From: Glaucostegus cemiculus
Lineage: Eukaryota
Assembly (NCBI GenBank): GCA_976551045.1
Contig: CDPCPM010000033.1
Span: 11,346,001-11,410,000 of the forward strand
Direction of reading: 5' to 3'
DNA: 64,000 nucleotides
This document shows, piece after piece, positions 7,159 to 63,880 of this stretch. Numbering within the stretch: position 1 is the first letter of the stretch; every line of letters begins with the position of its first letter. The notes under the pieces were generated by a model. It saw nothing but the letters and a program-made list of their open reading frames with translations, was not told the DNA's origin and searched no databases. The position numbers were made by a program, and so were the translations under genes.

Positions 7159-7173
7159 AAGCTAGAGGGCGCT
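7159..7173 (+). promoter_or_regulatory. CTCF-like motif (weaker)
   Basis: AAGCTAGAGGGCGCT matches the CTCF core at 12/14 positions but lacks the leading CC. Confidence 0.4.
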
Positions 7174-38774: not shown

Positions 38775-38868
38775 GTTCTGACAAAGGGTCTACGATCTGA
38801 AACGTTAACTCTGTTTCTCTTTCCCCAGATGCTGCCTGACTTTCTGAGTGTTTCCAGCAATTTTTATT
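38775..38868 (+). mobile_element. Penelope-like terminal-repeat relic with degenerate hammerhead core
   Basis: gttCTGACAAagggtctacgatctGAAACGTTaactctgtttctct...cagatgctgcctgac...tttccagca. The same repeat is seen about 7 times in the window. Confidence 0.75.
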
Positions 38869-39619
38869 GCATGTGAGGCTGGACTTGCAATTTCAACTGA
38901 AAGCAGAGTTGGCCTCATTTCTGCATTTGACTGAGTTCATGAGTCAGCTCAAATCCTAAAACCTGAGTTAAATTAAAAGTTTCATGTGTCTTCAGCCTTT
39001 TCGCTATGCCAATGCCCATTTTGCATCACTTTGCAGCCTTACCCTAAAAGTGAAAATGATGGATCCAGTTAATCTGATGAAATTCAGTTGATAAAACCAA
39101 AAATGGGCCAATGGTTCTCCCACACATAATTTGAATGAATTGTGCAAGTTAATGGAATTAGGGTATTAGCATTTAACATGTTTCTTAGCCATCAAAATAT
39201 TGCTAGCCATAATAATTCTGCTACTGTAGTGACCATACTGTAGTTAATCATTATTTCTACGTAACATTTTACATCTATTTATTATTTACCATACACTAGC
39301 TGATCTCAAAGAACTGAACACAATAAATGAGAGAATGCATCTTTTTCAACAATATTGATAGTTGGCAATGGAATAAACAAGATATTGTTTCAGTGTCATT
39401 GATTTAAAATGGGGATGGTATGTTAGAATTTGGCAGGTTTGAAAGGGAAAATATATTAACAAAAAAGAGGAACCAAGAGTTTGGAGGCATTATGGAAGTG
39501 TTGTTGGGGATTACCAACACTATTGCTGGAATATTGAGCTGCAGAAGCATAATGGTGTCATGAATTTGGAAGCACTAAGAGGTGGTTCAGTGTTTTAACA
39601 ACATGTTAAATTATGTCCA

Positions 39620-41220
39620 TGGGTTCATAGACTCATGCAGCATGGAAACAGCTCTTTGGCCCACTGTGCCCATGCCAGTCATCAAGTACCTATCTATCTT
39701 GACCCTGGTCTCCCAGCATTCAATATATATCCTTCTATGTCGTAGCATTTCAAATAGTCCTTATTAAATGTCATAAGATTACCTGCCTCCATCTCTCCCA
39801 CAGGCACTATATTCCATGTTTTAACCCCCTTTGGATGAAATAAATTCTTCCTCAACTCATTCCTAAGTCCCCTGTGCGCTTCCTTAAGCCTGTACCCTCT
39901 GGTTGCAGGTACCTCTATTATAAAGACGTTTCTCCAAGTCAATGCCCCTTACAATTCTGCGTATCTCAGTCAGGTCATCCTTAATCCTACTCTGCTTCAG
40001 TGAAAAACTCAGTCTATGCAATCTCTCCTCAAAGCTCAAATGCTCCATCCCAGGCTGCATCCTGGTGAATCTCCTCTGCACCCATTCCATTGAAAATCTC
40101 ATCCTTCCTATTGTGTGGCAACCGGAACTGCACACAGCACTCAAACTATGACCTAACTAATACCATATTTAAATCATAACCCCACGGTCCATATAATCTT
40201 TGCCCCGGCTAATGAAAGCAAGTATCCCATAGGCCTTCTTAACCACCTTATCTACCTGTGCTGCTTTCGAAGATCTTTGGATAAGCACTCCAGGATCCCC
40301 TTTTTCCTCAGTACTTCCTAGGGTCTTGCTATTCATTATGTATAAATTAACCATATTGGTCCTCCCAAACTGTAACACCTCACTTTCTTTAGGATTAAAT
40401 ACCACCTGCTATTTCTTTGCCCATTTTACCAACTTATTAATGTTGTTCTGTAACCAAAGGCTATTCTTATTATCAACAAACCCATAAATGAACTTAATAA
40501 TAATACCTCCTGCATTCATGTCAAGATTATTAATGCATAGAAAAAACAGCAAGGGTCCCAACACCTATCTTTGTGGTACACCACTGATCAAAGGCTTGCC
40601 ATTGCATAAACAAACCTCAACTAGCACCCTCTGCCTCCAATACAATTTGCCAAATTGCTCTGGATCCCTTGGACTATTAGGTTTTGTACCTGTCTTCTAT
40701 GCCCCATCTTTATCAGTACACTTAATCACCTCCTCAAAAAGTTCAATTAAATTAGTCAGACAGGAACTCCCTTAACAAAACCATGCTGACTAACCCTGCG
40801 TCTCCAAGTGCTGATTAATCCTGTCTCTCAGAATTTTTTCCAACAATTTCCCTACTCACCATCTATAAATACTTGGCTTATCCCTGCTGCCTTTCTTGAA
40901 TATATGTACCACATACTCTGCCCTCCAGTCATCAGGCACCTCATCTGTGGTCAGAGATTATTTGAAGATGTCACTATTTCATTTTTGAATGCCATTACTC
41001 ATTGCCTATAGACTTACCTGCAACTAAATACTACCAGTCTGTTTTCTTTGATATGTCTTATCAAATTGAAATCAGCCTTCTCTCAGTTCAGGACCTTAAT
41101 TTCTGGTCAAATCATTCTCCATAACAATCTTAAAACATATTGAATTACAGTGTCTATCTTCAAAAGATTAGATCCAGTATCCTCCAGAACCTTAGAGTCT
41201 GGAAATACTTGTATGAAACT
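39620..41220 (-). mobile_element. CR1 LINE, 3' ~1.6 kb, decayed
   Basis: Minus-strand ORFs give VQRRFTRMQPGMEHLSFEERL and AQVDKVVKKAYGILAFISRG, from the CR1 RT C-terminus. Confidence 0.9.
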
Positions 41221-41499
41221 CCTGAGTGTGTAATCACTGGAGTATTGTTGAGCGGGTGTGAACGGTTGTTGGGGCTGCTGATGTGCAGAGCTTGGTAGAA
41301 TCTGGAAGGAAATCTTTGTTTGAGAGACTGGTCTCTTTCAGTGAGGAATCAACCATTGGAGAGGGAGTGCAATGGTTTGGTAGCTCAAGGCAACAATCTA
41401 GGAAGCTAATAATTAATTTTAACATGAAACATATTTCTACAAAAAAATTGCAGCTGCAAAAATAAATTATAGACTTTGCTGCATAGTGGTGGTTTGGAA

Positions 41500-42140
41500 C
41501 TGTTTCTTTTCTGGCAGTCCCTTGGGATCAAGGATGACTTGCTTCCCCTCCAATTCCCTGGGTTCTGCAATGGCTAATGAGGCCAATGTGTGAGCTGCAG
41601 TCTCTGCCAAATGTAAGGCAGAAGGCCCTGATAATGTGATGATCAGACATGTGCCAGGGACTCACATGAGTTGGTGTATTTTTAAGGAAGGTTTGAAGAA
41701 TTTCCTCTGCCCATTTGGAAATGGCTTGCTGTCTTCAGAGTAAGTCAGCTGTTTCAGGAGTTCAGTGTGAGGTGTGCAAATTATGTGGCCTGCCCCAGGG
41801 AGTTGGCTGAGTGTAATTGGAATCATACTGCTGGGGATGACGGCCTGGGAGATGACACTAATGTTCTTTCAGTCATCGTGCCAATGGATTTTGCTGAGAC
41901 AGCATTGGTGGTACCTCTCCAGGGCTTGGAGGTGTTTGTAATAAATTGTCTAAAGCAAGCAGATAACAGGAATCACTGCTTTCCAGTAGAGCATGAGCTT
42001 TGTGTTGGGTTTGAGGTCATAATCTTCAAACATCCATTCACTGGGGCAGCCAAGGGCTGGGCTGATACATTGGAGATGATGTGAATTTCAACACTGACAT
42101 CTTCCTTCATTCAGAGGTAGCTTCTGAGATATGAAGGTGG
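41500..42140 (-). mobile_element. RTE (BovB-like) LINE 3' fragment
   Basis: The minus strand reads FEDYDLKPNTKLMLYWKAVIP, characteristic of the RTE ORF C-terminus, and is homologous to 47285-47900. Confidence 0.75.
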
Positions 42141-42289
42141 ATGCATTATACTTAAATCTCCAATTCTGATCCTGATTTCACAACTTTTATGTGTCCCTTA
42201 GTTTGTTGCTTCCCTCTAACTGCCCTAATTAATTTATCAACCAGATAGTTTCAATAATAATTTAATTCCACAGTATTCCAGGTTTCACC

Positions 42290-42760
42290 CTTTCAGAAAC
42301 ATTCCTGATGCTCTTTCCAGTTCCCCCCCACCTTGCCTGTAACTTAAAACCAACTTATTTTGCTTAAATTAAATTAAATTAAATTTTATTTACAGCGTGG
42401 TAACAGGCCCTTTCAGCCCAACGAGTCTGCGCCGCCCATTTTAAAACCTCAAATTAACCTACCCATATGTCTTTTAGAATGTGGGAGGAAATCGGAGCAC
42501 CCGGAGGAAACCCACGCAGACATGGGAGAACGTACAAACTCCTTACAGTCAGCGACGGGAATCGAACCCCAACCACTGGCTCTGTAGCAGCGTCGTGCTA
42601 CCCGCTACACTATCGTGCTGCTCTCGTTTCCAATTCTAGGGCTTTTGGCCTGAAACATTAACTCTATTTCTTTTCACGGATGCTGCCTGGCCTGCTGAGT
42701 ATTTCCAGCATTTTATGTTTCGATTCAGATTTCCAGCATCTGCTGTTTTTTGATTTTCAC
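42290..42760 (+). mobile_element. Penelope-like terminal-repeat relic interrupted by the V-SINE
   Basis: 42290-42364 joined to 42622-42760 aligns by eye with 61750-61940 (ttcc..cacct..tgt.act.. / ttcc.attct..cctgaaacattaact..gatgctgcctg). Confidence 0.7.
42365..42621 (-). mobile_element. Full-length V-SINE with CR1-like tail and (AATTT)n terminus
   Basis: V-domain at 42481-42545. tRNA head with A box (TAGTGTAGCGG) and B box (GGTTCGATTCC). Tail gggctgaaagggcctgttacc, and aaattaaattaaatt at 42366-42385. Confidence 0.88.
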
Positions 42761-45589
42761 ATTGATAATAGTGCCCATGTATCTATATCTTTGAGGCCCA
42801 GGATTTCTCTGCTTTCTCTCAAAGGAGAGAGCAAGGGAGACAGCCTTTAAATTCAATTTGTATTACCTTAAAATCATTTGGGAAAACACAGAAATTGAAA
42901 AATATTGCAATGCCTTAATGAAAAATGAATGTGCCAAGAAAAATATATTCTCTTCAAACAGATATTCTTCTTGATTTATATCAAAGTATTGTTAACTATG
43001 CTTGTGTGTCTTTAGACCTATATCTTTCTGTTTCAGAAATTCAATTTATTTGTAATAGAAGTATAGACTACTTTTTATATAAATTACTTACTTAAATAGT
43101 TTTTAACATTTATTATCAGATATAGTTTTGTAATCATTCTGAAAAACAAATGAATCCATGTTGTTACAAGTATGGAAGAACATGCCTGCAACTAAGCATC
43201 GAGGACTCCTATGAAGAAACTCTGAGGTATCTTATGCATTGCACAATATCACTTTGATTGAGGTATATAGTTTTACGCAATAATTTGGTTCATAAAATGT
43301 AAAACAAGCATTTGAGACATTTGTAATATATATATAAATCTTTATGCAATTATCCTGACCTTTACATTGCTATTCTATTTTCATATCGTTATTTATGATA
43401 AGTTGCTTTAAATTATATCATGGAGTAGGTAGCATTGAATGTATGTTACCCTCTCTAGAGACTTTCACAGGATTTTAAAATTTAATATTCTCATAACCTC
43501 TGCAGTAGGTGCTTGTCAAGTTAGTTGACACTTAAAGATGATTCCATATTCTCGGAATTCAGGTCAGACCCCATTCTCAATTTATATTTGAAAGTTTAAT
43601 GTCAATAAGAAACTAAACTTGCTGTGTGAAGTACCATTAAATATTCAATGTAGAGAATGGGGAGAAGAAAATTTCTGATACGAAGCACTCTTGAGAGAGC
43701 TTTCTTCCATACTAAAGGCATATACTGAGCCCTCTACTAAACAGGATATTTAACGTCTAGCCAGAGAGAAGTAAAATGGTTTAAGTGGTCTGGTAATACC
43801 AGCTATGGCCTCAAGTCATATTTTGTTACTTTGACACTGCATTTGAATTATACTCCATGTCAAATCAGGGCAAGCTTCTCCTTTCTACAGTGTCTCATTC
43901 AGCATCCTTGTGGAGTTATATTTAGATATTGGCTCCAGATTTATACTCTTCCAATTTAGAATTTTTGCAAAGCTGAAAATATGTCAAATCCCATGCTACA
44001 GTGTAAGCCTAGAAATTCATTCATGGTCATTTGTGCTAAATGTGTTATATAGTAGTGTCAGCATCATGTACTCAGCGCCTAAAGTCCACTGAAGTCAATG
44101 TACTACTGCTTAGGAATGGACTTCTGCATCGTAACTCAAATGCACTCGAAAAGGAGTGTCATGTAGAGCTTGCAAAATATGTCATAAATGTCCATATTTT
44201 CTAATAAATTATTATGCAACATTTTGACATCAATTTATATGTTTTCAACTACAAAATAGTGAAGTCATAGTATTTTTCCCCACCATTTAATCTAAAACTT
44301 CATACAGTTGTGTTTGATCCTTTTCAACTTGATGGATTGTTCCTCCTCTTATTAGGTATATGGTTCAGCTTAACCTAAGGTCAAAAAATGGACACCTTTA
44401 ACTTTGGAAATATTTATTACAAAGTCTGTTTGGACAGAATGAGAAAGACATATTGTTTCAGCTTGAGACAAGGTAAGGCAAGGTTTCAATATTAATTTGA
44501 ATAACTAAGTTCAAGGATATTTTCTTTCATGTTTTTGTGCTGTGTTGAGAAACTAATCTGCAAAAAATTGTAAATAACTGCAAGTCATAATATATTGTTT
44601 TGGAACACATGACAGCTTAATGGATTGTCAAAATGGCATACACAGCTGCTTTTTCAACAAATCAATTTTCTTTGATGAAACATTATTATGTGGAAATGTT
44701 GTTCCAATACCATGGTCCAGTTAGTTAGTTATCAGGGCAGGAAACATACCTGAATTAGAAGTCATTATACCATTTTGGTATTAAATTATACAAATCCAGG
44801 TTTTTTATACATGTAAATAGACATTGATAAAATGTATCAATGACAAGGAATTAGCTCAGCAACAATTGTAACCATGCTCTTTACATTTGATAATTTATTC
44901 TCCTCTATTTAGCACTCTACCAAAGACAAAGATGATCTTAGTAATGTAGAAGAAACAGCCTTCTGTATTAAAATTATTTGTGGAAAAGATAAAACACAAT
45001 CATTTTGTGTTATGAAGGTACGAATATTTACAGTGAACTAAGTGAACTTTCATATGGCAAGCTGTATACAAAAAGCCTGGTCTTCATCCAAGGCTGTAGA
45101 AAGATAATACAAAGTTATAAATCATTCATTCATCCAATAAAGATAATGAAGACAATCAGAAGAAAGTGTATATGCTGGAAGAAGCTCTACAGAAAAAATC
45201 ACCAATAAACCGATACTGCAAATACACGATTACTCATTCACTAAAAGTAAAAAGCACTTGAATTGCTATAATCATTGCATTTTCCACATACATTTTAAGA
45301 GAAATATATTTGCTTTGTTTGGTTCCTTATTCATGCCTTAATGAACTAATTAAACCTTTCCATATTTAACAAAAAGTTTTATGTTACATACTTAGGCAAC
45401 TGAATCCTAAGTGCAGCATTAGAAAACTAATATCAAAAGCTGAGTATCAACTAACTTTTTGGAGATTCTATTTGGTAAATAAGTTTATTGCACATGAATA
45501 AATTAGTCCAAATTCCATTGTTCTTATAGTAATCATGAATGGACTGTGCCCAAATTGCCTAATGTTTTAGGCTTCTCATTTAGGAAGGG

Positions 45590-46270
45590 ATTTAGGTGCA
45601 TTCGAAGGAGTTCAGAGAAGGCTATGTCAATTCCTGGAATGTTGTCCTTAGAAGAATGGTGACTCAAGTTGGGCCTTTATTCATTAGAGTTGAGAAGAAT
45701 GAGAAGTAAGCTTATTGAAACCTGAAGGAACTTGATACCTCATTTGCCAAGAGATAATTTAGGAACAGCTTCTTCTCCTCCACCATCAGAATTCTGAACG
45801 ATCCAAGAACACTACTTCATTATTCCTTTATTTTGCACTATTAATTTATTTTGTAATTTACAGTAATTTTATGTCTTTGTACTGTACTGCTTCCACAAAA
45901 CAACAAATTTCATGACATATATGTCAGTGATAATAAACCTGATTCTGATTCTGATTCTCTTGGGAGAATCTAGAACTAGAAGACATAGCTTCAGAATAAG
46001 GAGCTGCCTATTTAAGACTGGGATGAAATAGATTTTCTTTTATCAGAGGGTCATGAATCATTGGAACCCTCTACTTCAAACAGCTGTCAAGACTAAATCA
46101 TTCACCATGTTCAAGTCTGAGACGTACTTTTGATCTATAGGGGAGTTATGGGCCCTGAGGAAACATAAAGGAATATGGAGCAGAGGCCAAGATTGGATTA
46201 GTCATGATTTTATTGAACAGCAGAGCAGGCATGGATGACCACATTGCCCAATCCTGTTCCTATTATTTAT
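45590..46270 (+). mobile_element. CR1 3' fragment containing an inserted Rex-Babar 3' end (~45755-45958)
   Basis: CR1 relics flank a segment tttaggaacagcttcttc...ccatcaga..ctgaac...gataataaacctgattctgattctgattct that is near-identical in type to 61510-61705. Confidence 0.8.
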
Positions 46271-46299
46271 GTTTTTAACTTAACATCCTGTAGTCATTT

Positions 46300-46820
46300 G
46301 CTATTTAAGCAATGTTCTGCTTTTCTATCCTTTTTACAAAAGTGGATAACTTCAAATTCCATACATTGTAAATTGTTGCCAAATTTGCCAAATATGCCAA
46401 ATTTTTGTCCATATCCATTTGCAGATTCTTTGTGTCCCCCTCACAATTTGCTCTCCCTCCTGTCCATATCATCAGCAAATGTAGCCTCAGTACATCAGGT
46501 TCCATCATCTAAGTACTTGTTATACATGGTCATTGAGATCTCGGCACTGATCCCTTTGGTACCCCAGTAGTTACTTCTTACAAACCTGAATGTGATCCAA
46601 ATATCCTGCTACTGTTTTCAGCTAATTCTCTGTTCATATTACCCAGTACACTGTAGCTACTGGTTCTCCTCTATCCACCATCCTTGTTACATCTTTAAGG
46701 AATCCTAATAAATTTATCAAAATAATTCCCTTTTCCATGTTCACTCTGCTTAATTTTGTTATGATTTTCTAATTGCCCTGCTACAATATTATTTTCTTCG
46801 TAATGGATTCTAGCATTTTT
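46300..46820 (-). mobile_element. Decayed CR1 RT fragment
   Basis: Minus strand ...ggggtaccaaagggatcagtgcc (GVPxGSV) and acatttgctgatgat (FADD). Confidence 0.75.
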
Positions 46821-47284
46821 TTCAGTAATAAATCAGTTCTGTGTCCATCATTCCCATTTGGCTAGTTCACAGAAAATTTATCAGTTGCTCTGAGTATTCA
46901 ATGCAATTTAAAACTATGGGAATCTTTCAAAGAGATAATAGTAATCTTCTTCTTTTCTGTGTTCTTTGACCCAAACAACAGAGATGCAATAAAACTTGTT
47001 ACAACTGCACCAGTTTTTGATGTTTTAGACAATCACCAAAAAAAAGTTGTAGTGATGCATTTACACTCTTTGTAAATCCAAGGCAGCTGTCAGGACACTA
47101 ATGAAAAATTACCACGTTGGTGTCTGTTCAACAGTCTCCCAAGTGGCATCAACATCTGACAATCTAAATGTCAGTACAACTGTACTTTTTAAGAACTGCA
47201 TATACTGTGTGGTATGACTTTGATACCTTGTTGTTCCAGGCACTTCTGTTAATTGAGAGTTACTGCCTCAATTTCACACCAAGA

Positions 47285-47900
47285 CCCTGGAAAATGTGGA
47301 CCACTTTCCATACCTCAGGAGCCATTCTTCAGCACAGGCAAATATCAATGATAAAATTCACCACCATCTTCAGTGCACTAACACAACTTCTGGTCGATTG
47401 GGGAAAAGGATGCTTGAAAGTCAAGGCCTCAAAACTGGCATAAACTCATAGTCTACCAGGCAGCAATGATTCATGACCTCCTACGTGCTTCTGAGACTAT
47501 CTGTAGCAGGATTTTCAAGGCACTGGAAAGATATGCTACCTCTGTAAAATCCTTCAAATTCACTGAAAAGATAAGCAATATCAGTCTCATCTCATGAGGC
47601 AACATCCCCATAATTGAGGGCCTAGTGGCATTCAGCTCCATTGAGCAAACCATGTCACACACCTGAAACATATACTCTATTTTGAACTCTACCGCAGGAA
47701 GGTACTACCAGGCATTCAGAGGAAAATATAGAAGGATGTGCTCAGAGCATCCTTGGAAAAATGCAGCAACTCCACCGACTTGAGAATTCTAGGCCTGTGA
47801 CCGTTCAGACTGGAGAAAAAACACTTGGGCTGATATTGAGAACCTGAGAGGTAGGATCTGTGATCCTCAAGTTGGTCTCATCAATCAGCTCACAACCTGC
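47285..47900 (+). mobile_element. RTE (BovB-like) LINE fragment
   Basis: Hand translation LENVDHFPYLRSH..QANINDKIHHHLQC...GRLGKRML contains the RTE F.YLGS motif region. Confidence 0.8.
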
Positions 47901-47904
47901 AAAA

Positions 47905-47977
47905 CCAGAGATAGAGAAAGATATAGAGAGACAGAGATAGAGATATTTTTATTAGTCACATGTACATCGAAATACAC
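47905..47977 (-). mobile_element. Truncated tail of the 23.8-kb SINE family with a GA/GATA-rich repeat
   Basis: tttattagtcacatgtacatcgaaa is identical to 23779-23803. Confidence 0.75.
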
Positions 47978-48674
47978 CCAATCCCAAGGAAATACCTCTT
48001 GAGAAGACTGCCTTAAATAAAGAATGATCTAGGTATCGCGCTGCCTCTGTTATTTGCTTTTCAAGAAGCAACTCAAAGAAACTTACAGAAATTAATTTGG
48101 TGTTAAGTTTCTGCCACTTGAGGGAAAGTTGGTTGAACTTAAGGAACAGGTAAAAAGGTATGATTTCCACACCATTATAGATAGACCTTGTTGGATTGCT
48201 TAGTTTGTGGAAACCATTTAATGTAGTGGAAAAGGTATTCAAGGGAAAAGGTGTAATAGCTATGAGGGTGGAAACGTGAGTCAGCTTCACTCAGAGCATG
48301 GTTCCACTGTTCATTTGGTGAGCAAGGCCATAGAGAACATCATAACACATGGACTTCTTCCATGCTGCCAAGTCATGTGGAGGCTACAGATAGGTTTAGC
48401 AGGGAACTAGTAAGTCACATGAATGCAACGGATGGGGTGGCTACAGGTCTGTGAGGGCATAAGGCCAAGGGTGTTAACTTCTTCAGGGGCTTGCACCAGT
48501 TAGAATGCAACCTAAAAGCTATCCAGTCTCTTGAAAAAGGCCTATTTATTCCTCTTGCTTGCTTCTTGTCGGTCAACTAATTTTCAATCCATGCCAATTT
48601 ATAATCCTCAATACCATGCACTTTAATTTTGCACACTAACTTTTTATACCATGCACTTTAATTTTGTGCAAGCC

Positions 48675-49625
48675 TTGATCAGCAAGTTTGAGGATGACAT
48701 GAAATTAGGAGGTCTTGTTGATAGTGACAAAGGTTATTGTAGATTACAGGAGGATCTTGCTCAGTTAGGGAAGTGGGCTGAGGAGTAGCAAATGGATTTC
48801 AATACAGACAAATGTGATATGATGTAATTTGGAAAGTCAAACCAGAGTAGGACTTATGCTATGAATAGTGGGGCACTAGAGAATGTAATGGAACAGAGGC
48901 ACCTAGGAGAACAAGTGCATAGCTCGTTGAAAGCAGCATCACAGGTAGACAGGGTGGTGAAAAAGGCATTTAGCACACTGGCCTTCATCAGTCAGGGCAC
49001 TGAGTATGGGAGTTAGGACATTATGTTGTAGTTGTATAAGTTGTTAGGGAGGCTGCAGTTAGAGTACTGTGTATACGTTTCGGTCATCCTATTATAGAAA
49101 AGACGTGGTTAAAATGGAAGAAGTGTAGAGAAGATCTACGAGGATGCTGTCAGGACTAGAGGGCCTGAGTTATAGGGAGAGGTTGGCCAGGCTCGGTCTT
49201 TATTCCTTGGAATGTAGGAGAATGAGGGGCAACCTCATAGAGGCGTTTAAAAATATGAGAAACATAGATAAGGCAGAGGATAACAATCTTTTCCCCAGGG
49301 TAGGGCCGTCCAATACTAGGGGGCATAGATTTAGGGTCTGATGGGAAAGATTTAAAAAGGGTCCTGAGGGGCAACTTTTTCATGCAGAGGAATGAGCTGC
49401 CAGAGGACGTGTATGGAATGAGCTGCTAGAGGAAGTGGTTGAGGCAGGTACAATAGTATCATTTAAGAAGCACTTGGATAGGTACATAGAGGGGCAAGGC
49501 ATAGAGGGATATGGGCCAAATGCAGAATGCAGGAAATTAGGACTAGCTGGGTGGTCACTGTGGTTGGCATGGACTGGTTGGGCCGAAGGGTCTATATCCG
49601 TGATGTATTGCTGTATGACTCTATA
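48675..49625 (+). mobile_element. CR1 LINE 3' ~950 bp, relatively well preserved
   Basis: ISKFEDDMKL (FADD), GLEGLSYRERLARLGLYSLECRRMRG and a typical 3' UTR gggccgaagggtct...tgtatgactctat. Confidence 0.92.
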
Positions 49626-49639
49626 ACCTATTGTGTGGA

Positions 49640-50210
49640 ATTTTACCAAAATCTTTCTGAAAAACTAAGTACATCATATCTACAGGCTTTCTTTTGTCTA
49701 TCCTACAGTTTCATTCTCAAAATCCTTCAGTAGTTTTTCAAACATAATTTCCTTTTAAGAAGTCCACTTTGACTTGTTTAATCCCATTGATGGTTTGCAG
49801 GTGTTCTGTTCTCTCATTCTGTATAATAGACTTTAGCCCATGTTAGGCACCAGTAGTTTCCTGTCTTCTTTCCCCCTCCTTTTTTTTTTAATAGTAGGAT
49901 CACATTTTCCATCTCCAATCTGTAGCAACTATCCCATAACCTACAGAATTGTGGAAAATGATAATCTATGCATCCACTATTTCTACACCCTCTATTTGGA
50001 GGCAACTTCAAAGCAGCAAAGATCTTTCGAAGGATGCTCCAAATGCATTGGATTCAAATTAGATATGGTGCAGCCAGAAAGTGCAAGACAGACTGAATAC
50101 AGTTATAGAGTAACACAGCATGGAACAGGTCGTGCTGACCAAGATGCCCATCTAAGCTTGTCCCAGTTGCTCACGTTTGGCCCACAACCCTCGAAACCTT
50201 TCCTATCCAT
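49640..50210 (-). mobile_element. CR1 fragments (RT N-terminal relic and a 3' end)
   Basis: NVILLLKK...KTGNY in ORF 49814..50011. An inverted 3' end atagagtaacacagcatggaacagg lies at 50105. Confidence 0.7.
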
Positions 50211-51680: not shown

Positions 51681-54219
51681 CATTGTTGATCTTCTACCAT
51701 AGACACCATTTTAGGTAGGACCTCAGCCATACAGAAAGGGCCTAATCAAGCTCCTATAAGTTGTGGTATAGCTCTTCCTATGGTATTGTCTTGTCAATAA
51801 ACAATGCCAAAGAACCTATAGATGTTACATCACCTGTGTTCAGAAGTTCAAGTGGTAGGTCATTTCCTCAAGTATTTGTACTGTTGTAAACTCGGTAGTT
51901 GCAAGATAATTGTGGGTTCCTGTTTCAGCTTTTGGTATAATTTTACCTTCAGAGTTACCACTGGTGCTAAAGGTTTCAGGATATTTGTTCTTTGATTGTT
52001 ATCACAGGCTACATTCAATGCTAAATTATATCAAGTGTTTAAATGACAAGAAGTTTAATTTTTGAACATTTTCCTAAGAATTTAAGCATTTTGGCCGCAA
52101 TAGCGTGGATAAACAGACACTTGGTAATGGTGCTATTGTATGTAAAGGTAGAATTTCATACAGCACACATTGTCAGATGTGATAGTCAGTTCTGTACTGC
52201 TTTAACACTAGTAAGCTTTAAATGAAAATTAATCAATGATTGTTATACAGGCTACAAATAAATACCTCTGAAATATAAAATAAATTTAAGGGATTACACT
52301 TATATAGAATTCGCTTTCTAAGATCATTAATCTCAATCACAGTCACCAAGAGGCAGTTCTACACAGCCAAGCTTATGTGAATATCCCAAACTCTCTTTCA
52401 AATAGTTCTTTGGAGAATATGGCAAGAACAATTGATTTCTCAAAGCATCTGTATATTTCAGTTTCACAAAAGACCCTGTGGACCATATTCTTACTTTGTA
52501 AACCTAGTTTAGCATTGAAATTATAATTCAAGTGGAAGTTCAGTAATTATTTTCAGTTTTCCTAAGTTGTTTCAAGGGATACACAGTCTTCAAATGGATG
52601 CATGAGTCTGTACTATGCAGTACTCTGAACCATTCAGTCTGGCATAATTTTCAGCTCATTAGATGTCTCCTACACATGATTTCATGATTAGCCTTTGAGG
52701 ACAGAGATGAAATAAAGGAGAGAAGCAAAGAATATCTGAAACAGTTAAGTGCAAAACAAGGCCTGGATCCTCATCTTTCCATTGGAATTGAGCTAAGGTA
52801 GAATTTTTATTTCTTTCTTTCTGACCTTGCCGTGATCCCATTCCATTTTCTTGGTTCAGGATCAAATAAGGAGTCAGTCTTTACAGCACCAGAAATGGAT
52901 TAACTGAAGCTAAGGGTAGTTGGAATCCCTATATGATTAAGGACAGGAATTTGGAAAAAGCTTGACAAATCAATGTTTCAACACAATATATTAGATCAAG
53001 AGAAACTGCCTGCCAGCCAGTCTTCCTGCATCTACATCCCAAGTTTTCCATGTGACCTTCTTCCTTCTGGGCTCATGATCATTGGTACGATCGGACTGGA
53101 AGAAATCTTCCACATCTTCTCTCTCAGTAATCTCTCATGATGTTAGTGGGAGTTAAGCAATATCCATCTCAGTGAATGGTAATCAGGGGGCAACTGGGGG
53201 TTGGGATAGGGTTTGTAGAAAACTTTCATGGCTAATTTTAGTAACATAGCATACATCTCCATTCCAAATTAGTAAGGATACCCAGCTTATGAACAAAGAA
53301 TTCTTGGAGAAGAATATGTCTAGGAATCAAAAGCAGAAATACAACAAATAAAAGGAGCAGAAGAAGAAGAGGGACAATTTAAAAAAATATATATCATGCC
53401 TAGACATAAGGACATACACAGGAAGATTAGAGTTTCTTAAACAGAAAGTAACACCAGGAAAAGGCAGAACTTTATCTGGAAACAGTTTTATATTGATAAA
53501 TGACTTTGACACATGATATGACAAGCCCATATAATTCTTATATTATGGTGATATGTTAGTGTTGTAGTATGTCAGAGTAAGTAACATGTCAAAATTGTGA
53601 CATAAAGATACATCATATCAAATGTCATGACAGTGGCAGGTGCTGTGACAACCTGAAGCAGTTATAAGAGATGAGGTACCATCAGTACAGGTTGAAGATG
53701 AATATATTGTAATAACCAAGCTAAGTCTCTCTGAAAAACATTAGCATCCAGGATGAAATGTGTGATGATTTTTTATGAGAAAAAAATAATTCAATTATGG
53801 GTCAGGCGGTAAAGCTTAAATAATTTTCAGTTGCTGATTTTTCTCAGGCTAGCATACAGAGCTAAAGGTAAATGGGTCAAGTATTCACTGTGCTTTATTT
53901 GCACTCCTGTTATAACTCTATCTGAATACTAAGAGAAAGCCATTACTAAGTTCTGGGAAGGGAAGGTTGCTGAAGTTCTTTTTCCAAGTGGCCTCCGAAC
54001 TTAGGGATGCCATTGAGATTGTAATCTCCTTAATGAAAAGGGAACATATGGGAGCCCAGACCTTTGTCATTTAATATCGGAAATCTAACAAGTTTCCTCC
54101 ATAACTTTCTGACCTTCTTACTGGGGCTTCTGATCGTGCAAATTGTGTGTGTCAAAATGATGTGGGTTTTGGTTATCACATTGATTCTGTGCAGCTTCAA
54201 CACCAGCACAGATTGGAAT

Positions 54220-55150
54220 TATAGAAATGTAGAAAATTAATGACACAGAAGGAAGGAAGCCATTCAGTCTGTTGTATCCATACTTATTGCAAAAGAGATA
54301 CCAAACCTAATTCAACCTTCCAGCCCCAGACATCTTGGAGGTTACAGTTCTTCAAGGGTACATCCCTGTGCTTTTTTAAAAAGTTTGAAGGTTTCTGTCT
54401 CTGCCTCCCTTTTAATGAATTCCAGACCCCTTCTGTCTTCTGGGTGAAAACATTTTTTCTCATTTCCATTCTAACCTTTTTACCATTTAGTTTAATTTGT
54501 GCCTGCAAAGGGAAATAGGTCCTCCTTCTTACTGGGCCCCTTATCATTTTATATACTTCAATTAAGTCACATCTTAGCCTCCTCTTTCCCAGGGTAAACA
54601 ACTCCAGCCCATCCACTCTTACCTCATGGTCAGAATTTTCCATCCTTGTAAATCTCCTCTGCACCCTCTCCAATGCAATCACATCGTTCCTGTCATGAAC
54701 CAGAAGTCTATGCAGTATTCAAGCTGCAGTCCAACAAATTTGTATACAATTGCAGCATAAGCTCCCTGCTCTTACATTCTGTGGATCAGCTAATAAAGAA
54801 AAGCATCCCATATTTTTTCTAACCACCTTATCAACATGTCATCCTAACTTTAAGGATCTTTGTCATTATGGGAATATTTACCCTGAACCTCTTGAATCTT
54901 CTTGATTGCCTCCTTTGTTCTGAGACTGATTTACCTTTGTTACTGTTTCTAGATTACTTTTACTTAATCACTTCTCAATCTAGAAATCTGGCCTGTCCCA
55001 CACTGGAGCATTTACTCCTGTTTTACCTTTGTCCTTTTCCATGGCTCTGCTAAATCTAACCAAATTATAATCACCGGAACAAAAAATGCTCTCACTTGCC
55101 CAGATACATTTTCTAAAACTAAATCCAGAACCGCCCCATTCCTAAAGCCT
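54220..55150 (-). mobile_element. CR1 LINE 3' fragment plus an adjacent endonuclease-region relic
   Basis: ORF 54284..54682 reads IALERVQRRFTRM...RRLRCDLIEVYKMIRG. Confidence 0.85.
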
Positions 55151-55194
55151 ATTAAACACAATTCCTTCTCCAATCAGCTTGGCATTCATCACTT

Positions 55195-55280
55195 CAACCT
55201 AAAACATTAACTCTATTTCTCCTTCCACAGATGTTGCATGCCCTGCTGAATGTTTCCAGCATTTTCTGTTTTTATTCTGA
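55195..55280 (+). mobile_element. Penelope-like terminal-repeat relic
   Basis: aacctaaaacattaactctatttct..ccacagatgttgc..cctgctgaatgtttccagcattttctg. Confidence 0.7.
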
Positions 55281-55829
55281 CCCTACCCCATTAAAGTTTT
55301 ATTTGGCTTGTTAAATTCTTCCAATGGAAAAAAAAATCTCTTGAAAACAATTTATGAATTCTCAATAATTTTTGCACTTACTGCATCCCTATTAGTACTG
55401 GAATAATTGATATCCCCACTACAATTGTTCAATTGTTTTTGCATGTCACAAGTTTGCTCTTCTATCTCCCTCAAACTGTTTGGTCTACAGTACCATTAAA
55501 GTAGTGTGGTTACCCCTCTTTTGTTCTTTAGTTCACCCATAATGCCTCATTTGATGACCTTTGTAACATATCGTCCTTTCTCACAACTGTGATTGCTTTA
55601 CTAAACAATATTACAATTCCCAACACATCTCCTTATTTTGTCTAACGAGAACAATCACAAGAATCACATAATAATTGTGATTTATGATTTGCAAATCAGA
55701 ACCTAATGAAAACAAACAATATTCATTTTTCCAGTGCTTTAAGCCAGAAAATAGCATTTCAAAATGAATGACATTGTTTGAGTTGGGATTTCGTACAAAT
55801 CTGAGTCACCTTTTGTGTGGAAAAGGGAA

Positions 55830-55935
55830 AGTATATGTTTTTATATATTAATTCAAGATGTTTTAAAGTGCTTCACAACTGATGAAGTATTCTTGAATTG
55901 CAGACACTAGAGAAATGCTGCAGTCAATTTGGCCA
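55830..55935 (-). mobile_element. DeuSINE tail relic
   Basis: The reverse complement caaattgactgcagcatttc..ttcaagaatacttcatcagttgtgaagcacttt matches the other copies. Confidence 0.5.
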
Positions 55936-56619
55936 AACTAATTTATTAACTTCTTACTGCTGATATTCAACATTGAAGCCACAGTCAATGTGAATCAGAA
56001 CATGAGTTACAGTAGGAAAATATTCTTTAGCAGTGTCTCTTTGGCACTTTAACTACAGTATTGATGTGGCTGAAGCAATTAGGCTTCTGGTGAGAATTAA
56101 TACTTCAGATTTTGATGATATCACTGGGCACTGTTTCACACCCTCAGGTTGTGCTGTGGATAAATTGGAGCAACTTTTCAAGAAACTATATGGGCATATT
56201 GATCTGGTACCTAGATGTAGAAAATATACTACCAGGATGATTTTCTGTCTAATGGTGATGTGAGCTGAAATAGACACTGCTATCTATTATGATGTGAACA
56301 ATATCCATATTGGCAGAGATTGCTAAGATCACAGTGCTCATCAAATTTAGTGCAGGGGACTGGTACAACATCCCCATTTCCATAACACTGTTGCATTATG
56401 GTGTCATAGATATTCACAACAGGATTGCAGGCTTTCCAGTGAAGCAGAAGGCTATTGGCTCTACTTATTTCACACTGCTGGTATCTTGGGAGATCAACTG
56501 GAAAGCATTCCACTCCCTGAATATATAGCAGTTGTGTGACCATAAGCAGCCCATCACAATGATAAGTACCTGATATCCTGTTGGCAGTCATAATTCACTC
56601 ATTCTCGACTAGTCCACAT

Positions 56620-57005
56620 TATGTTACAACTTTATAAAACACTAGTTAGACTGCACTTAGAGTATTCTGTGCAGTTCTGGTCACCACACCATAGGAAGGA
56701 TATAATTGTGTTGGAGAGAGTACAGAGGATGTTGTCAAGATTGGAGAATTTTAGTTATGTGGAGAGATTGGATAGGCTGGATTTGTTTGACTGAGGCATA
56801 TAAAATTATAAGAAGCATAGGTAGGTGGAGTCAAATATAATTGCTGCGTTTAAGAGACATTGAGATAGGCAATTAAACAGGCAAGGCGTAAAAGAACACA
56901 GACCTAATGCAGCCAAATGGAATTAGTGTAGATGAGCAAAAAGATGAGCATGGATGTGGTGGGTTGAAGGACCCGTTTCTGTGCTGTACATCTCTATGAC
57001 TCTAC
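56620..57005 (+). mobile_element. Internally deleted CR1 3' fragment
   Basis: LQLYKTLVRLHLEYSVQFWSPHHRKD, and 3' end tgtgctgtacatctctatgactcta. Confidence 0.88.
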
Positions 57006-57299
57006 AGAGACTGAATAAGTTCCCTCACCAAATTTGGACTTAGTTCAGAACCAAATGCCAGGAAAGCAGTAATTGTCCATCCAATTACCGTTGACACTTA
57101 CATCATGAATCAGCAGCCATGTTAATAGAGAAAAAACTAAACTTTTAGCAATTTTCTATTTGCATTTATGCTTCATTAGCTAATTATGGAATGATTTGGT
57201 TTCAAAAGATATGTAATGGCTGCAGATCAATGGCACTTCTCTTCAAAGTAGTTCACTTTCCATGTGTTTTGAAACACAATCCATTAATATACAAATGCA

Positions 57300-57438
57300 A
57301 GCAAAAATCAAAAACTTGCAGATGCTGAAAATCTAGAATAAAAACAGAAAATGTAAGAAGTACTCAGCTGATCATGCAGCGTCTGTGGATACAGAAACAC
57401 TGAGTCAATGTTTCAGGTTGGTGACCTTTCATGAGAAC
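57300..57438 (-). mobile_element. Penelope-like terminal-repeat relic with degenerate hammerhead
   Basis: Minus strand gttCTCATGAaaggtcaccaacctGAAACattgactc...cacagacgctgc.. Confidence 0.72.
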
Positions 57439-57539
57439 GAACCAGTTCCAATACAAACTGGAAAAGAGTATTATCTGAAATTCTTGAATTCAACATCTTG
57501 TTCTAAGGGCCATAAAGTGTTCTTTGCAACAGTGGAGGC

Positions 57540-57905
57540 TGAGGGGAGACTTAATTGAGATACATAAAATTTTGAGGGGCCTAGAAGACTAAGTAGAAAA
57601 TACCTTTTTCCCTTCTGAAAGAGTCTAGATGTAAAGTTATTGTTGAAGGACTCAAGTGGAAAAGAGGAAAATATTTTCACCCAGAGGGTGGTAGTAGTAT
57701 GGAACTCACTACCTGATAGAGAAATGGAAACACAAACCCTTATCGCATTTAAACAATCCCTGGGTGTGGACTTAAAGAGCTGTGAACAGCAGGGCTACGG
57801 ACCCTCTACACAAAGGTGGGGTTAGACTGAAGGGTTCCTTTTCAACCAGCACAGACACAATAGGCTGAATGGTCTCCTTCAGTGTTGTGAAATTGGTATG
57901 ACTCA
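57540..57905 (+). mobile_element. CR1 3' end fragment
   Basis: NIFTQRVVVVWNSLP and 3' UTR ggctgaatggtctccttc. Confidence 0.82.
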
Positions 57906-58319
57906 TTGATCATGTCAGTACAATTTGCCCATACATCCTACAATCATCTCTCAAACCCTTTGCTTGGATATGTGACCACTCATTATAGGTTTGTTCTCAA
58001 TTTATAAATTCTGTGCACTGGTTTTCCTGTTGTTATATTTACTCTTCAGTTCTTCAAAGTCATTTTTTTCTTGTGTATTATTGAAATATGTGTTGGATTT
58101 TTTAAATGAACAGTGAGACCTACATCATAGCATTTATATTTTTTATGCCATCAATATTAAGATCAAAAAGGTGCTTGAATGTTCTGTTTTTGGATGAATG
58201 TGAATTAAAACTAATTTTTATATAAAGAAGTGTATTTTAGCCTCTCTTTGAGCTTTTCTATTCCACTAATTTACAAACATTTCACATTTAGATATATGCA
58301 AACAAAATTTACAAGATGA

Positions 58320-58532
58320 AAATCAAAAAGCTGTAGACGTGACTATGCTGACAAAGTTCGTAAGGTCAGGCAGTATTTGTGGAAAGGGAGAGAGTTAACC
58401 ACTTCAGACAAACTGTTTTCTACCTTTGCCAGTTCTGACACAGTGTCTCTGGTCTGAAACATTAACTGTTTTTCTTTCCACAGATGCCGTCTGACCTGCT
58501 GAGTGTTTCCAGCATTTTTTGTTTATATTTCA
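58320..58532. mobile_element. Inverted pair of Penelope-like terminal-repeat relics
   Basis: 58320-58408 (minus) and 58430-58532 (plus) both carry ctgaa..ttaact...ttccaca.at.c.g.ctgacct. Confidence 0.7.
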
Positions 58533-59694
58533 AAATTCACAGAACATTTGAGTACAACTTGACATCATTAGAATGGGCACAAGAAGAAGTGAATTATAGT
58601 CCAATCTCTGGAGTTGCGTGCACATTGCAAACTCCTGGGAAAAATGTTTTCATCTGCATTTTATTGAACAGTACTATGGCTTCAAAGTTAATGACATAGA
58701 AATTGGACATGTTGCTCCCATTTCCCAGTTGGAAAATGTGTGTAAGTAACTCCAGCCTCTTCTGTCCAAATAACTTCCAAGGCCAAATTGGATGGAATAT
58801 TTTGGGCAACAGATTATCTGGCTGGTGCCTACAGCAGATGTTAGGGTTTGAAATGTGGAGGAATATGCCCTTTGACCCAAACCAGACGTTTGTTTAAATT
58901 AAGCATAGCAATATCTTACATTAAAGTTCCCAAGGTATTCAAAGTGGCCTAACCAGCAGTCTACATTTTAACTGCTAGCCACTAGCAGCATGAATCCCTT
59001 CTCCTCCTCATAGTTATGATATTTATAATACTGTCTGAATCTGCATTATGTTGTTGGATATTTTGGGATATAATTTAATCTTTTGATTATTCCCTCTGAC
59101 AGTTTCCGAAGCCACAATTCATGGTTGTGTTTAGAGCTAAGATAGCTACAGTTTGAGATTGTAGGCCCATAATGTGTGTGCTCAATCAGAATTGAGACAT
59201 CAGCCTTCAAGTTCTCCATCATGGTACAGCAGGTGCTCTGCTGTAGTTGGATATCCATTGCACATTGGGTAAAACTGGCACTTACACTATTTTTATCCCT
59301 GGTTCCAGCTAATTTGTTTCTGATGATCCACCACATGCACACCTCTAAATTACATGTTGTCAGTATCTGAGCTGGTGGCTGTAACAGTGAAATTACGTGG
59401 TGGTAATTCTTCATCTCTGCTGTCTTCTTTTACCACCTGGGCTGCTTGACATTCTTCATGAAAAAGATATGAGATAATGGCAGTGTTGTGTTGAGGAACT
59501 GGGGGAAAGCAATAGCAGCAACTTTTGTAAGATGTAAGACAAGAGAAAGAGGATTAGGAATATGCATACTCTTTAATGGCAACAGCCTACTGAAGCATTT
59601 TATCAATTGGCTTTCCCATAATGGCCTGTTCCTTCTTCTCAATAGGCTTTACTACCAAAAATGCCCATTACCCAATTAAGATTTAAAAATATTT

Positions 59695-59822
59695 ATTTGT
59701 TAGTCACATGCAAATAAAAACACACAATGAAATGCATCTTTTTATGTTACTGAGAATGTGCCAGGGGCAGCCCGCAAATGTCACCTCTCTTCCGGCACCA
59801 ACGTAGCATATCCACAGCTATG
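59695..59822 (-). mobile_element. 5'-truncated copy (tail only) of the 23.8-kb SINE family
   Basis: ttagtcacatg..cacacaatgaaatgcatcttt..ggggcagcccgcaaatgtcacc..ttccggcaccaacgtagcat aligns to 23783-23893. Confidence 0.8.
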
Positions 59823-59929
59823 CTCACTTGGTATGAGCCAAGAATTTCCCTGCTTTTAGTTGCTAGTGTGTCATTTTCTGTGCCATTGTCTCCATCAAAA
59901 CAACAAGAAATATGTCAGTGATTATCATG

Positions 59930-60375
59930 TAATACGTTTTGATTGAATAGCTAGCATTTGTTGCATCTCATTCCCTCATCCATTATTGATATAGATTGAG
60001 AACAGCTAGAACCCCAGCACTGATCCTCATGCTACCTCATGCATCACATCCTGAAAGTGACTCATATTTCCTTCTCTCCGTTTTCTTACCTTTAACCAGT
60101 CCTCAGTCCATGTAGTATATAACACTATGTACTAATTTTAATAATTTGTATAGCACCTTATCTGCTGGTTACAAATTCAAAAAACATTAACGAATTTCTC
60201 AGACATAATTTCCTTTTCATAAGTTCCACATTGACTTTACTCAGTTATATTATTATGATTTTCTAGGTGACCAATGCATTTCCTTAATTATTGATTCCAG
60301 TATCTTCCATACTATTCTGAAGTTTTGGGTATAGTTTTGGTCATATTTAAGGAACGATATTAATGCATGGGAATT
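59930..60375. mobile_element. Decayed CR1 fragments
   Basis: ccccagcactgatcct (GSVLG on the minus strand) and ataatttccttttcataa segments are shared with other CR1 copies in the window. Confidence 0.6.
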
Positions 60376-60709
60376 ATTTCAGAGAAAAAAATCTCTGGAT
60401 AAACGTGCACACCACATCAGACACACAGATTTAATTTCCAGATATTTGTGATCTTTAATGCTTAAGCATGGCATAGTCTCTCAGATGTACAACTTAGTTG
60501 CCACAAATAATTAACAGGTGAATGAATGTGGATAACTGCCATGTCACATACATGGTGCCTAAACACACAGAAAATCTGCAGTAACTTGTTTTTGTGGTGG
60601 ATGAGTGGCATATTACCCATTGCTTGGAGGCTTTAAATATACTCCTGGTCGATTCTGTTCCAAGGGGGTCTGCTTTAAAATTCTGTAGAAAAGGTTCCCC
60701 TACCTTTCC

Positions 60710-61940
60710 CAATCTCCAGGGACCCAAATAGTCTTTCCAGGTGAAGCAGAAATTCAGTTGCACTATTTCCAATCCAGTGAACTACATTCAGTGTTCACAA
60801 TGTGGCTTTGTCCGCACTGGAGTAACCAAACTCAGACCATGTGAGCACTTTGCAGAGTATCTATACTCAATCTAGAGTAGTGACCCCAAGCTCCCCATTC
60901 CCTACTATTAATTCTCCATTTCACGTCCACTCTTGTCGTCTCCTGCACCGTTACAAGGTCCAAAAGCAAACCTGAGGGCCAGCACCTCTTTTCCCCTTGG
61001 GAATTTTGCAGCTTTCTGGATGAAATAATGAATTCTCCAAGATTAGCTAACTTTTCTTTTTGTCTCTATCAGAACTGGCCATTTCTGCCTGTATCAGAAC
61101 TGGCCATTTCTGCCAGTCATCCAACTATGAGTTTGGCTCAGTTCTTCCTTTTCCATTAGTATGACTTGGCCTGTTGAGCATGTTCACAGCACTGCTATTA
61201 GTAATACATAACTCAGGCAAAGATGACAAAGAAATATCTATAGACGAATGATGGAGAGGATTCTGACTGGTTGCATCACAGCCTGGTATGGAGGCTCAGA
61301 TGCTCAGAGTTGCAAGAGACTGCAGAGGGTTGTAGACTCAGCCAGCTCCATCCTGGGCTAAACCCTCCACACCATCGAAGATATCTTCAAGAGGCAGTGC
61401 CTGAAGGAGGTGGTGTTCATCATTAAGGACCCTCAGCAGCTAGGACATGCCCTCTTCTCATTACTACCATCGGGGAGGAGGTGCAGGAGCCTGAAGATGC
61501 ACACTGAATGATTTAGGAACAGCTTCTTCCCCTCTGCCATCAGATTTCTGAACGGTCCATGAACCCATGAACGCTACCTCATCGTTCCTTTTTTTGCACT
61601 ATATATTTCATAATTTATAGTAATTTTTATGTCTTTGCACTGTACTACTGCCACAAGATAACAAATTTCACGTCAAATGTCAGTCATGATAAACTTGATT
61701 CTGATAATATACTTCTAATTGCCACATTAACTCACTTGTTCTCACCTAATCAGAGATACTTCCTTTGTTCTACCAATCCTTTCCCCACCTTCTCTGTGAC
61801 TTGTTTACGCTCTTTCCCAGTTCTGACATTGGGTTTTGGACCTGAAACATTAACTCTTGTTTCTCCTTCCACAGATGCTGCCTGACCAGCTAAGTGTTTC
61901 TGGAATTTTCTGTTTTTATTTCAGATTTCTGCAGTTTTAT
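60710..61940 (+). mobile_element. Penelope-like (Poseidon-type) element relic: GIY-YIG endonuclease pseudogene plus terminal repeat
   Basis: Hand translation from ~60717 gives QGPK*SFQVKQKFSCTISNPVNYIQCSQCGFVRTGVTKLRPCEHFAEYLYSI, a decayed form of 'FTC.S.NVIY.I.C..CG..YIGET.R.L..RF.EH'. The terminal repeat lies at 61750-61940. Confidence 0.82.
61250..61705 (+). mobile_element. Rex-Babar LINE 3' end nested inside the Penelope relic
   Basis: ILTGCITAWYGG..KRLQRVVDSASSI..HALFSLLPSGRRCRSLK..FRNSFFPSAIRFLN, with tail gataaacttgattctga. Confidence 0.88.
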
Positions 61941-63781
61941 TTGAGTTCCACCTGGTCATTGGGGTCTGGTGCATCTGAGTCACAGTTAGTTTTCCAACAA
62001 TTCCAGGGTATCTTACTAGAGTTACAATGAGAGTGCATTGTGAATTTTCAGCTTCATGTGTTCTGCCACAATTCTCACTCCTTGACTCAAAAACTGAATC
62101 AGTCAGATTTATTGTCACTTCCATATACACATTCAGCATGCATGGGAGCGAAATACCGTACTCCACAGATCAAGGAGCTGGTCATATTAAAAAAAAACAA
62201 TGAAAGATGCAAAGACAGAAAGACATTAATGACATTGGAACCGTACAAATTAAAAAGAGACTCCAGTAAAACATTCTTAGAATGAGCGTACTGAACTGGT
62301 GGCTTCAAATGAAGTCTCTAAACAAAAATTTAACTTAGAACAATAAAAAAAACACAAATATAAAATACTCTTTCAGAAGAGGGGATTCTTTACCCCGGTT
62401 ATCCAACTGGATACCATTTCACTTCATACTCAAGAGATGCAATTAAGAGAAGTCCTAGCTAATGACACTGTGCATGGAATACTTTAGGTCAAGATACATT
62501 TTAATAAACATTTGTGGAAGTTCTTCATTTGTTTGGCCTCATTTGAGGATTTGAGGATTTCAGTTACATTCTAAAACACTATTTTATTATGAAGTTTCAG
62601 AGAACACTTCATAGTCTTTGATATAAAAAAAAATTCAACTTAGTCTGGACTACTGGCTATCTTGCAGCAAGTCAGTGAGTAGAGCTGATTTTATGAGAGA
62701 ATTTTGGTATCAGAAAACCACATCCACCAGCAGAGTATACTTAGAAAGTTACTTCTCTATAACTTAATATTCAAGTTCTAATGACTTACATGGGATGAGT
62801 TTGATCATTTCTCCGCCAGGTTACCCAGTGGAACCCAAATGATGGGAATCAAAGTCAACCCCTAAAGATCGATTGCAGTGCAATTGTCTACATATTTGTA
62901 AGTAATTCTCATTTGCCTGCTCTTCAGTTAAACATAATCATATATGAATAATGAATAAAAAAATCAATATTTTATTATCAGACTAGTTAAAAAATTTCTA
63001 TCAATATTTGTCCCTGAATCCACTACATGCATTAACTTACTGGGACCAATGCTTTTAGAATTAAATGCTTTCTGCTTTCTCTGTGTTCCTTTCTTCCAAT
63101 TTTGTCCACTTTTATATATATACAAATTTCTTGTCATTTATAGTTATACTTCACAAATTGCAATATGTCATTGGTTTACTATAGACACCTTCTCTGTTGG
63201 CTCTTTGAAAGCCTGTATATAGAGATATCTTTCATTATATTATGCCACGCATATCACATCATGAATATAACTTAGCAATATGATAGTTGACTTGGTCGGG
63301 TGTAAATCAATGGGAATGATCTTGAAATCCACATATGATTTGATATTTGTGTTTCTATTTCTGAGGTGATTAATTGTGAATGTCTTCCATATTTTTTCAT
63401 ACATTCTATGCAATGCCCTGTTTCTAACTAATTGAATATTTATGTTGCAGTGAAATTTATGGAATCAGGTTTAAGAAGTGAGAACTGAAAATTTGGAGCC
63501 TTCACTCATTTCTACTTACCCCTACTTAGGAAGCCCAGTAATTGCAAGAACACGTACCAAGAATTAAAGTGCAAGTTGACATGCTCAAAGCATTAAAATG
63601 AAAACTGGCACATGATTTAATTGATTATAACATCACATGGTTAAGTACTGCAGTGCTCTGAGGATTCTTTTTGAAATAGATTACAATTTCCTGGCAAAAT
63701 CCTTGAATAAATATGGAAATCTATCTAATGACTTGCAATCGGCAGACCATTTACTGACTTTACTTTTGTGATTTGGTTTTC

Positions 63782-63880
63782 ATTTCTGAGGAAGGAAGAA
63801 GTCCAAAACATAAGCCTATATTTTTCCCTTCACTGAATGTTATGTGCAGCACTTCCAACACATCTTGTTCTGTTTCAGGG
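63782..63880 (+). mobile_element. Older Penelope-like terminal-repeat relic with hammerhead-like core
   Basis: CTGAGGA-a-GGA(agaag)TCC-AAAACAT, followed by a weakly similar downstream sequence. Confidence 0.45.

Follow-up and report, generated by a model that had tools for sequence, protein, structure and literature searches.

Decayed copies of a Penelope-like retrotransposon carrying a predicted minimal hammerhead motif in the genome of Glaucostegus cemiculus

The stretch of Glaucostegus cemiculus DNA analysed here (64,000 nucleotides (nt), hereafter the window; positions 11,346,001 to 11,410,000 of contig CDPCPM010000033.1, assembly GCA_976551045.1) contains dispersed copies of a short repeat, which a preliminary description had taken for relics of minimal hammerhead ribozymes in Penelope terminal repeats. 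We conclude, with a probability of nearly nine in ten, that these copies are decayed 3' ends, truncated on their 5' side, left by an old Penelope-like retrotransposon of very high copy number whose pseudo-long terminal repeat (pLTR) carries a minimal hammerhead motif, and that they are likely inert. The assignment to minimal type-I hammerheads in Penelope-like terminal repeats is supported genome-wide and fits the consensus in the supplement of PMC4209133. The idea that an ancestral RNA family had been spread through the genome holds for the genome-wide spread; the motif, however, travelled as a passenger at the 3' end of a retrotransposon and not as an independent RNA family.

The genome assembly searched comprises 2.85 Gb, and clustering of 278 distinct matches to the motif divided them into four lineages, A, B, C and D. 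The consensus that had been drawn by eye is that of lineage A, with eight exact genomic copies and none in a reversed control, and a degenerate pattern of the intact motif gave 1,174 exact genomic matches against none in the control. Lineages A, B and C keep CUGANGA with an extra base, GAAA and NUH in the genome-wide consensus, as would be expected from the preliminary description. There is no helix III, and positions 15.2–16.2 are palindromic; the palindrome dinucleotides CG, CA and TG occur at near-equal shares, which points to an ancestral CG. Variation falls at position 7 (U, C or A) and position 17 (U or C), the positions that a hammerhead leaves free.

Counting of stem pairs in each lineage, from which 37 pattern-selected matches were excluded, showed that stem I closes with U-A in 66/95 copies of lineage A and with C-G in 87/103 copies of lineage B, 9/18 of C and 18/25 of D, and that the first pair of stem II is G-U or A-U in lineage A and G-C in lineages B and D. 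The claimed stem covariation is therefore two-sided between lineages only, and does not extend to the copies in the window. A 19-row alignment (A1), which includes 13 rows selected by pattern, leans towards the structure, with 91% of cells pairing and a covariation score reached by none of 500 shuffles. Four or five lineages kept the hammerhead pattern while their flanks changed. Every lineage also has another palindrome lying across the cut site, from position 16.2 to 1.3 (GUUAAC, GUUGAC or GUCGAC), in which positions 17 and 1.1 change together and which could compete with the catalytic dimer.

In the window itself, a profile built from 154 genomic matches, with the reversed window as control, found a dispersed repeat of about 95–135 nt. 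Seven copies had been named, and six of these (38775, 42631, 55195, 57438, 58430 and 61818) are real by this measure, at E 4e-21 to 6e-30, and all belong to lineage A. The seventh, at 63786, scored 6.7 bits (E 0.16), under the best match in the reversed window (10.4 bits), and had to be withdrawn; the corresponding segment (63777–63873, plus strand) is in register and may be a very old copy, doubtful at this non-significant score. On the plus strand, the 3' stub at 38775–38868 holds a minimal-hammerhead relic with G8A and an intact ACGT, starting at +2 of stem I; the stub at 42631–42745 has its first catalytic box deleted, and that at 55195–55278 starts within the 3' arm of stem II, lacking everything 5' of it, and has no CUGAnGA box. 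On the minus strand, a 3' stub with its tail (57316–57438) holds a relic with G5C and ACAT that again starts at +2 of stem I. The plus-strand stub at 58420–58542 retains a perfect stem I of 5 base pairs (CAGTT/AACTG, confirmed at 58430–58468) next to a core broken by G8A, A9C and ACAT, and an inverted partial copy missing from the earlier list (58342–58406, minus strand) lies head-to-head with it, in an arrangement typical of Penelope. Finally, the pLTR remainder at 61713–61930 (plus strand) includes a relic from 61818 with G8A, A9U and ACAT.

As had been described, no copy in the window has an intact core, each being broken or partly missing. The palindromic ACGT is kept at 38775 only; the other five copies read ACAT, through CpG decay. 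The impression that stem II keeps pairing with different sequences was not borne out, since the differences are scattered transitions leaving G-U wobbles, that is, decay and not covariation. An Rfam scan of the window returned no hammerhead at E ≤ 10, and 10 weak unrelated matches; for a motif without helix III this is expected.

The copy at 61818 ties the motif to its parent element. A relic of a GIY-YIG endonuclease, the 5'-truncated end of an open reading frame (ORF) with stops and frameshifts, lies at 60696–61050 (plus strand); it matches the ORF of a long remnant at locus L089 with 49% identity over 47 amino acids (E 2e-13) and the element profile at E 4.7e-38. The first part of the 3' non-coding region follows at 61051–61223 (plus strand), with a 25-nt tandem duplication at 61057–61126, and is split from the remainder by a later insertion at 61224–61712 (plus strand) that, by eye, has a 3' end like that of a long interspersed nuclear element (LINE), a second copy of which lies at 45754–45949. 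The window is collinear with locus L044 over 60721–61223 and again over 61713–61920, so the endonuclease relic and the 61818 motif belong to one element split by the insertion of about 490 nt, confirming the physical link that had been proposed. This arrangement recurs: at 37 of 48 endonuclease-anchored loci a motif lies downstream on the same strand, 300–1000 nt after the anchor start, compared to two with a motif on the opposite strand and one with a motif upstream on the same strand. Reverse transcriptase (RT) similarity is absent elsewhere in the window, and the six copies are therefore separate truncated insertions.

Long remnants elsewhere define the element further. Their ORFs match RVT_1 (E 4e-4) and GIY-YIG (E 0.013), both below the Pfam cut-off, and Pfam gave no relevant match for any of seven short endonuclease relics. 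The reconstructed ORF contains DKG, YIDD, a CX4CX2C linker and CCHH endonuclease motifs; the Cys linker and the CCHH motif are also present in the natural ORFs of L089, L096 and L098, and the top-ranking relatives in the database are proteins of sharks and rays, with 55–62% identity. According to PMC8557442, RT, Cys linker and CCHH endonuclease features mark Neptune or Nematis; judged by domain features, and no more finely than that, the element would be an endonuclease-containing (EN+) Penelope-like element of the Neptune/Nematis type. All sampled copies are broken. In L257 and L242 the motif flanks the ORF on both sides, 3,000 and 3,455 nt apart, giving the anatomy pLTR(motif)-ORF-pLTR(motif), and the 3' ends of 111 lineage-B copies cluster in two groups, of 31 and 44 copies, with about 35 nt between them, the Penelope 'tail'. 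The interval 58430–61930 of the window was considered as a single full-length element on account of its similar spacing (3,388 nt) and rejected, as no RT or 5' ORF similarity lies between. In L257 and L242 about 130 nt separate the predicted cut from the likely start codon downstream of it. All lineages have an earlier ATG some 25 nt past that cut, in a different frame from the main ORF, and in lineage B this ATG starts a short reading frame of roughly 16 codons; the stretch from this ATG to the ORF start contains several polypyrimidine-AG sites. The element ORF also occurs within ray gene models (P0004, P0010 and P0054) annotated as kinase, chitinase-domain or mucin isoforms, likely through annotation read-in.

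The family is extremely abundant. In forty 10-kb stretches, taken at round coordinates on large contigs and thus not a random draw, we counted 90 matches of at least 20 bits and none when reversed. Extrapolated from this 400-kb sample, the genome would hold 6.4x10^5 copies (bootstrap 4.5–8.4x10^5), 3.8x10^5 of them covering the motif. A strict descriptor of the intact motif found no match in the sample and none in the window; intact motifs make up well under 1% of copies.

One lineage departs from the others in its core. The consensus core of lineage D is CUGAUGC-A, position 9 being C in 84% of 25 copies and in 21 of 23 copies of a similarity-picked set; the ten scoreable unselected copies have eight C, two G and no A. 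In the other lineages position 9 is A in 34 of 35 scoreable unselected copies and C in none. The lineage-D pattern has 221 exact genomic matches (control 0), and the lineage contributes 40 of 181 copies in an 800-kb sample, keeping its stems and palindrome and having its own endonuclease-linked 3' region. In the rows covered of the PMC4209133 supplement (file 2, part 2 of 3) the CUGAUGC core is absent, all having A, and a literature search on A9C with hammerhead ribozyme found nothing.

The 800-kb sample, made up of 60 arbitrary stretches and 20 adjoining the window, was also used to score the 5' ends of the 181 copies. Starts are concentrated at –4 to +11 of stem I (75/181), with 19 in the 56 nt before that bin, and the three 16-nt bins that follow hold 25, 13 and 7; the second of these, with 13, contains the predicted cut, so that the genomic 5' ends show no peak there, with the qualification that the score filter under-counts short copies that start late. 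The flanks of 73 scoreable stubs contain 46% pyrimidine compared to 72% in 38 longer copies, indicating that the starts at stem I are real ends, and 25 of the 73 stubs have a head-to-head partner. In lineage B, TATATAT lies 31 nt before the A of TCAGTC, a spacing that we take to be that of a TATA-initiator pair; the other lineages are less clear. RNA reads from three runs of one study, aligned on L257 and L001 at 80% likeness, number in the thousands on both strands, most being less than 90% alike, which suggests that they come from other copies or a relative. Their ends do not pile up at the predicted cut, in what are fragmented libraries read against dead copies. In folds of seven natural intact copies, stems I and II belong to the minimum-energy structure or to one close to it.

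These data suggest a template RNA whose 5' end was at stem I and which, for the most part, was copied without having been cut. Active masters would carry the motif at the very 5' end of the element RNA, with an initiator-like TCAGT at stem I and, in lineage B, a TATA-like box at –31. Copying of this RNA by the element RT would begin at either of two internal sites, in most cases ahead of cleavage, and would yield many short stubs starting at stem I, often as head-to-head pairs. Self-cleavage, as a dimer or otherwise, is predicted from the letters of the motif; as judged from the literature, the cut 3' of GUU or GUC would be slow, needing a second motif through the ACGU palindrome and/or the element protein.

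Several points weigh against these interpretations. Clear two-sided change is seen at only two stem positions, which means few independent events; stem I of lineage B has an A-C mismatch, and the lineage-D core departs from the consensus. The 5' ends, taken from local alignments of copies that have diverged, are uncertain by several bases. Nearest-neighbour folding of isolated natural copies does not favour the double hammerhead: for L001 it comes to –14.9 compared to –31.7 kcal/mol for the plain duplex, and the monomer hammerhead fold to –8.5 compared to –9.4, the dimer energies excluding three of the seven copies, of lineages B and C, in which stem II has 4 base pairs and a 4-nt loop. The promoter reading is drawn from motif likeness in one lineage, and a 3' splice site is an equally good reading of these letters.

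If these letters were indeed a splice site, the CAG of stem I would end an intron of the 5' untranslated region, retained as the pyrimidine-rich 3' region, as in Drosophila virilis Penelope, an intron precedent given in PMC4209133. A polypyrimidine tract and CAG directly precede the core in all lineage consensuses, CTAAC lies about 20 nt upstream in A1, and GTAA overlaps the ORF stop in 4/5 lineage consensuses. However, GTAA arises by chance from NNG-TAA, the donors are without G at +5, and copies of the exact spliced junction number zero in the genome; among 684 near-matches, none of the 20 inspected had the ORF upstream, the pattern having caught mostly ordinary lineage-B copies, and no CT..AC joint occurred among 15 of the 37 read joints for L257. 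We regard this explanation as unlikely. A self-cleaving RNA family spreading apart from the protein-coding element, as a retrozyme-like tandem repeat, is disfavoured far more strongly. Most copies are short and non-coding, some loci have two same-strand motifs 400–1,700 nt apart, and non-LTR retrozymes are reported from one chondrichthyan (10.64898/2026.07.22.740005), but the window has no tandem array holding the motif, and the stubs are co-terminal with the pLTRs of ORF-bearing copies, ending at the two 3' ends of the element. Least probable of all is a chance likeness to a hammerhead in an ordinary repeat; the motif is short and Rfam is blank, but its exact agreement with the published Penelope consensus, in the position expected for it (PMC4209133), the compensatory pair in stem I and the freedom of positions 7 and 17 refute it as far as sequence can.

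A further explanation concerns function and not membership of the family, and is partly compatible with descent of the copies from a Penelope-like element: the motif may have been kept mainly as a 5'-terminal RNA structure, or as a protein-binding or promoter element, with cleavage dispensable for amplification. Lineage D and the excess of copy starts at stem I over the cut site argue for it, as do hammerhead mutants of PAc (Poseidon of Anolis carolinensis) whose insertion in vitro is unaffected (PMC11167929) and the proliferation of Naiads without a canonical hammerhead ribozyme (HHR) (PMC8557442). Against it, every core base is kept in the three other lineage groups, CUGAUGCA may be A9 preceded by one inserted base and could still cleave, and among the core variants listed in PMC3088659, which are others than that of lineage D, are natural ones with activity. 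We consider it possible, at well below even odds. A fuller version, which we advance tentatively and with the same reserve, is that a lineage of about a fifth of all copies (order 10^5) amplified with a C that substitutes for A9 or shifts it, its stems and palindrome being kept, that most short copies come from uncut RNA starting at stem I, and that the hammerhead served as 5'-terminal fold and start signal, with cutting optional.

Comparison with known systems places the family close to those of other animals. Minimal HHRs in the pLTRs of metazoan Penelope-like elements, as presented in PMC4209133, likewise have a U-rich leader, CUGANGA with an extra base, short stems I and II, GAAA-CG-NUH with a palindromic ACGU and no helix III, and are mostly solo, decayed copies; the supplement gives their consensus as CUGANGAH G..C GAAAN-palindrome-NUH, and such motifs are stated not to cleave as monomers and to cleave weakly as dimers. 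The closest among the supplement rows covered are those of Crassostrea and Acropora (Neptune), and no cartilaginous fish appears in these rows. Copies covering the motif number about 4x10^5 here by extrapolation, compared to 4,000–9,000 descriptor matches in coelacanth and Xenopus (PMC4209133), a comparison that is not like-for-like, and lineage D, with CUGAUGC, escapes the 'cuganga' descriptor used there. Neptune and Nematis EN+ elements share RT, Cys linker and C-terminal GIY-YIG with the present element, as well as partial tandems, inverted 5' copies and a tail of 30–40 nt (PMC8557442). PAc likewise has an HHR in its pLTR and a pair of 3' ends, separated by about 35 nt, that correspond to two RT start sites; its hammerhead cleaves only with the element protein, and its ORF starts within stem II, unlike the ORF here, well past the predicted cut (PMC11167929). 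Non-LTR retrozymes also have type-I HHRs in short non-coding repeats related to the pLTRs of Penelope-like elements (PMC7229834; 10.64898/2026.07.22.740005), but form tandem arrays, whereas the copies here are dispersed solo or head-to-head stubs, the array search covering the window. A Penelope expansion in whale shark (10.1101/443036) and an internal TATA-less promoter in D. virilis (PMC2377424) are on record. Minimal hammerheads of Penelope, including fish Neptune elements, are already known, and the element itself is probably in Repbase; a literature search on shark with hammerhead ribozyme returned no description of this family, the portion of PMC7229834 covered names no shark, and the supplements of 10.64898/2026.07.22.740005 may list it.

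Two observations lie apart from the family. The left part of the window (1–38774) has no copy in 38 kb, compared to 2.25 per 10 kb elsewhere, a gap tempered by 10 of the 40 arbitrary 10-kb stretches being likewise empty. It surrounds a candidate first coding exon at 13088–13807 (minus strand), with the EH1 motif FFIDNIL and WPAWVYCTRYSDRPSSG, which we take to belong to an engrailed-family gene. In addition, loci L099 and L004 contain long, nearly open LINE-type RT frames (548 amino acids in L099), which suggests that this LINE-type family is much younger than the Penelope element.

The locus itself carries little weight, its copies being fossils. The family adds cartilaginous fish to the known range of Penelope minimal hammerheads, its copy number being very high, and bears on the role of the hammerhead in these elements, a function described as unclear in PMC8557442. 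What is fresh is the spread of a lineage with an altered core letter and the start of copies at the first bases of the motif and not at the predicted cut. Lineage D, with its C at position 9, and the pattern of copy starts together offer a cheap and direct test of whether cutting is needed, and, if cutting is indeed optional, lineages C and D would form a natural matched pair for testing it.

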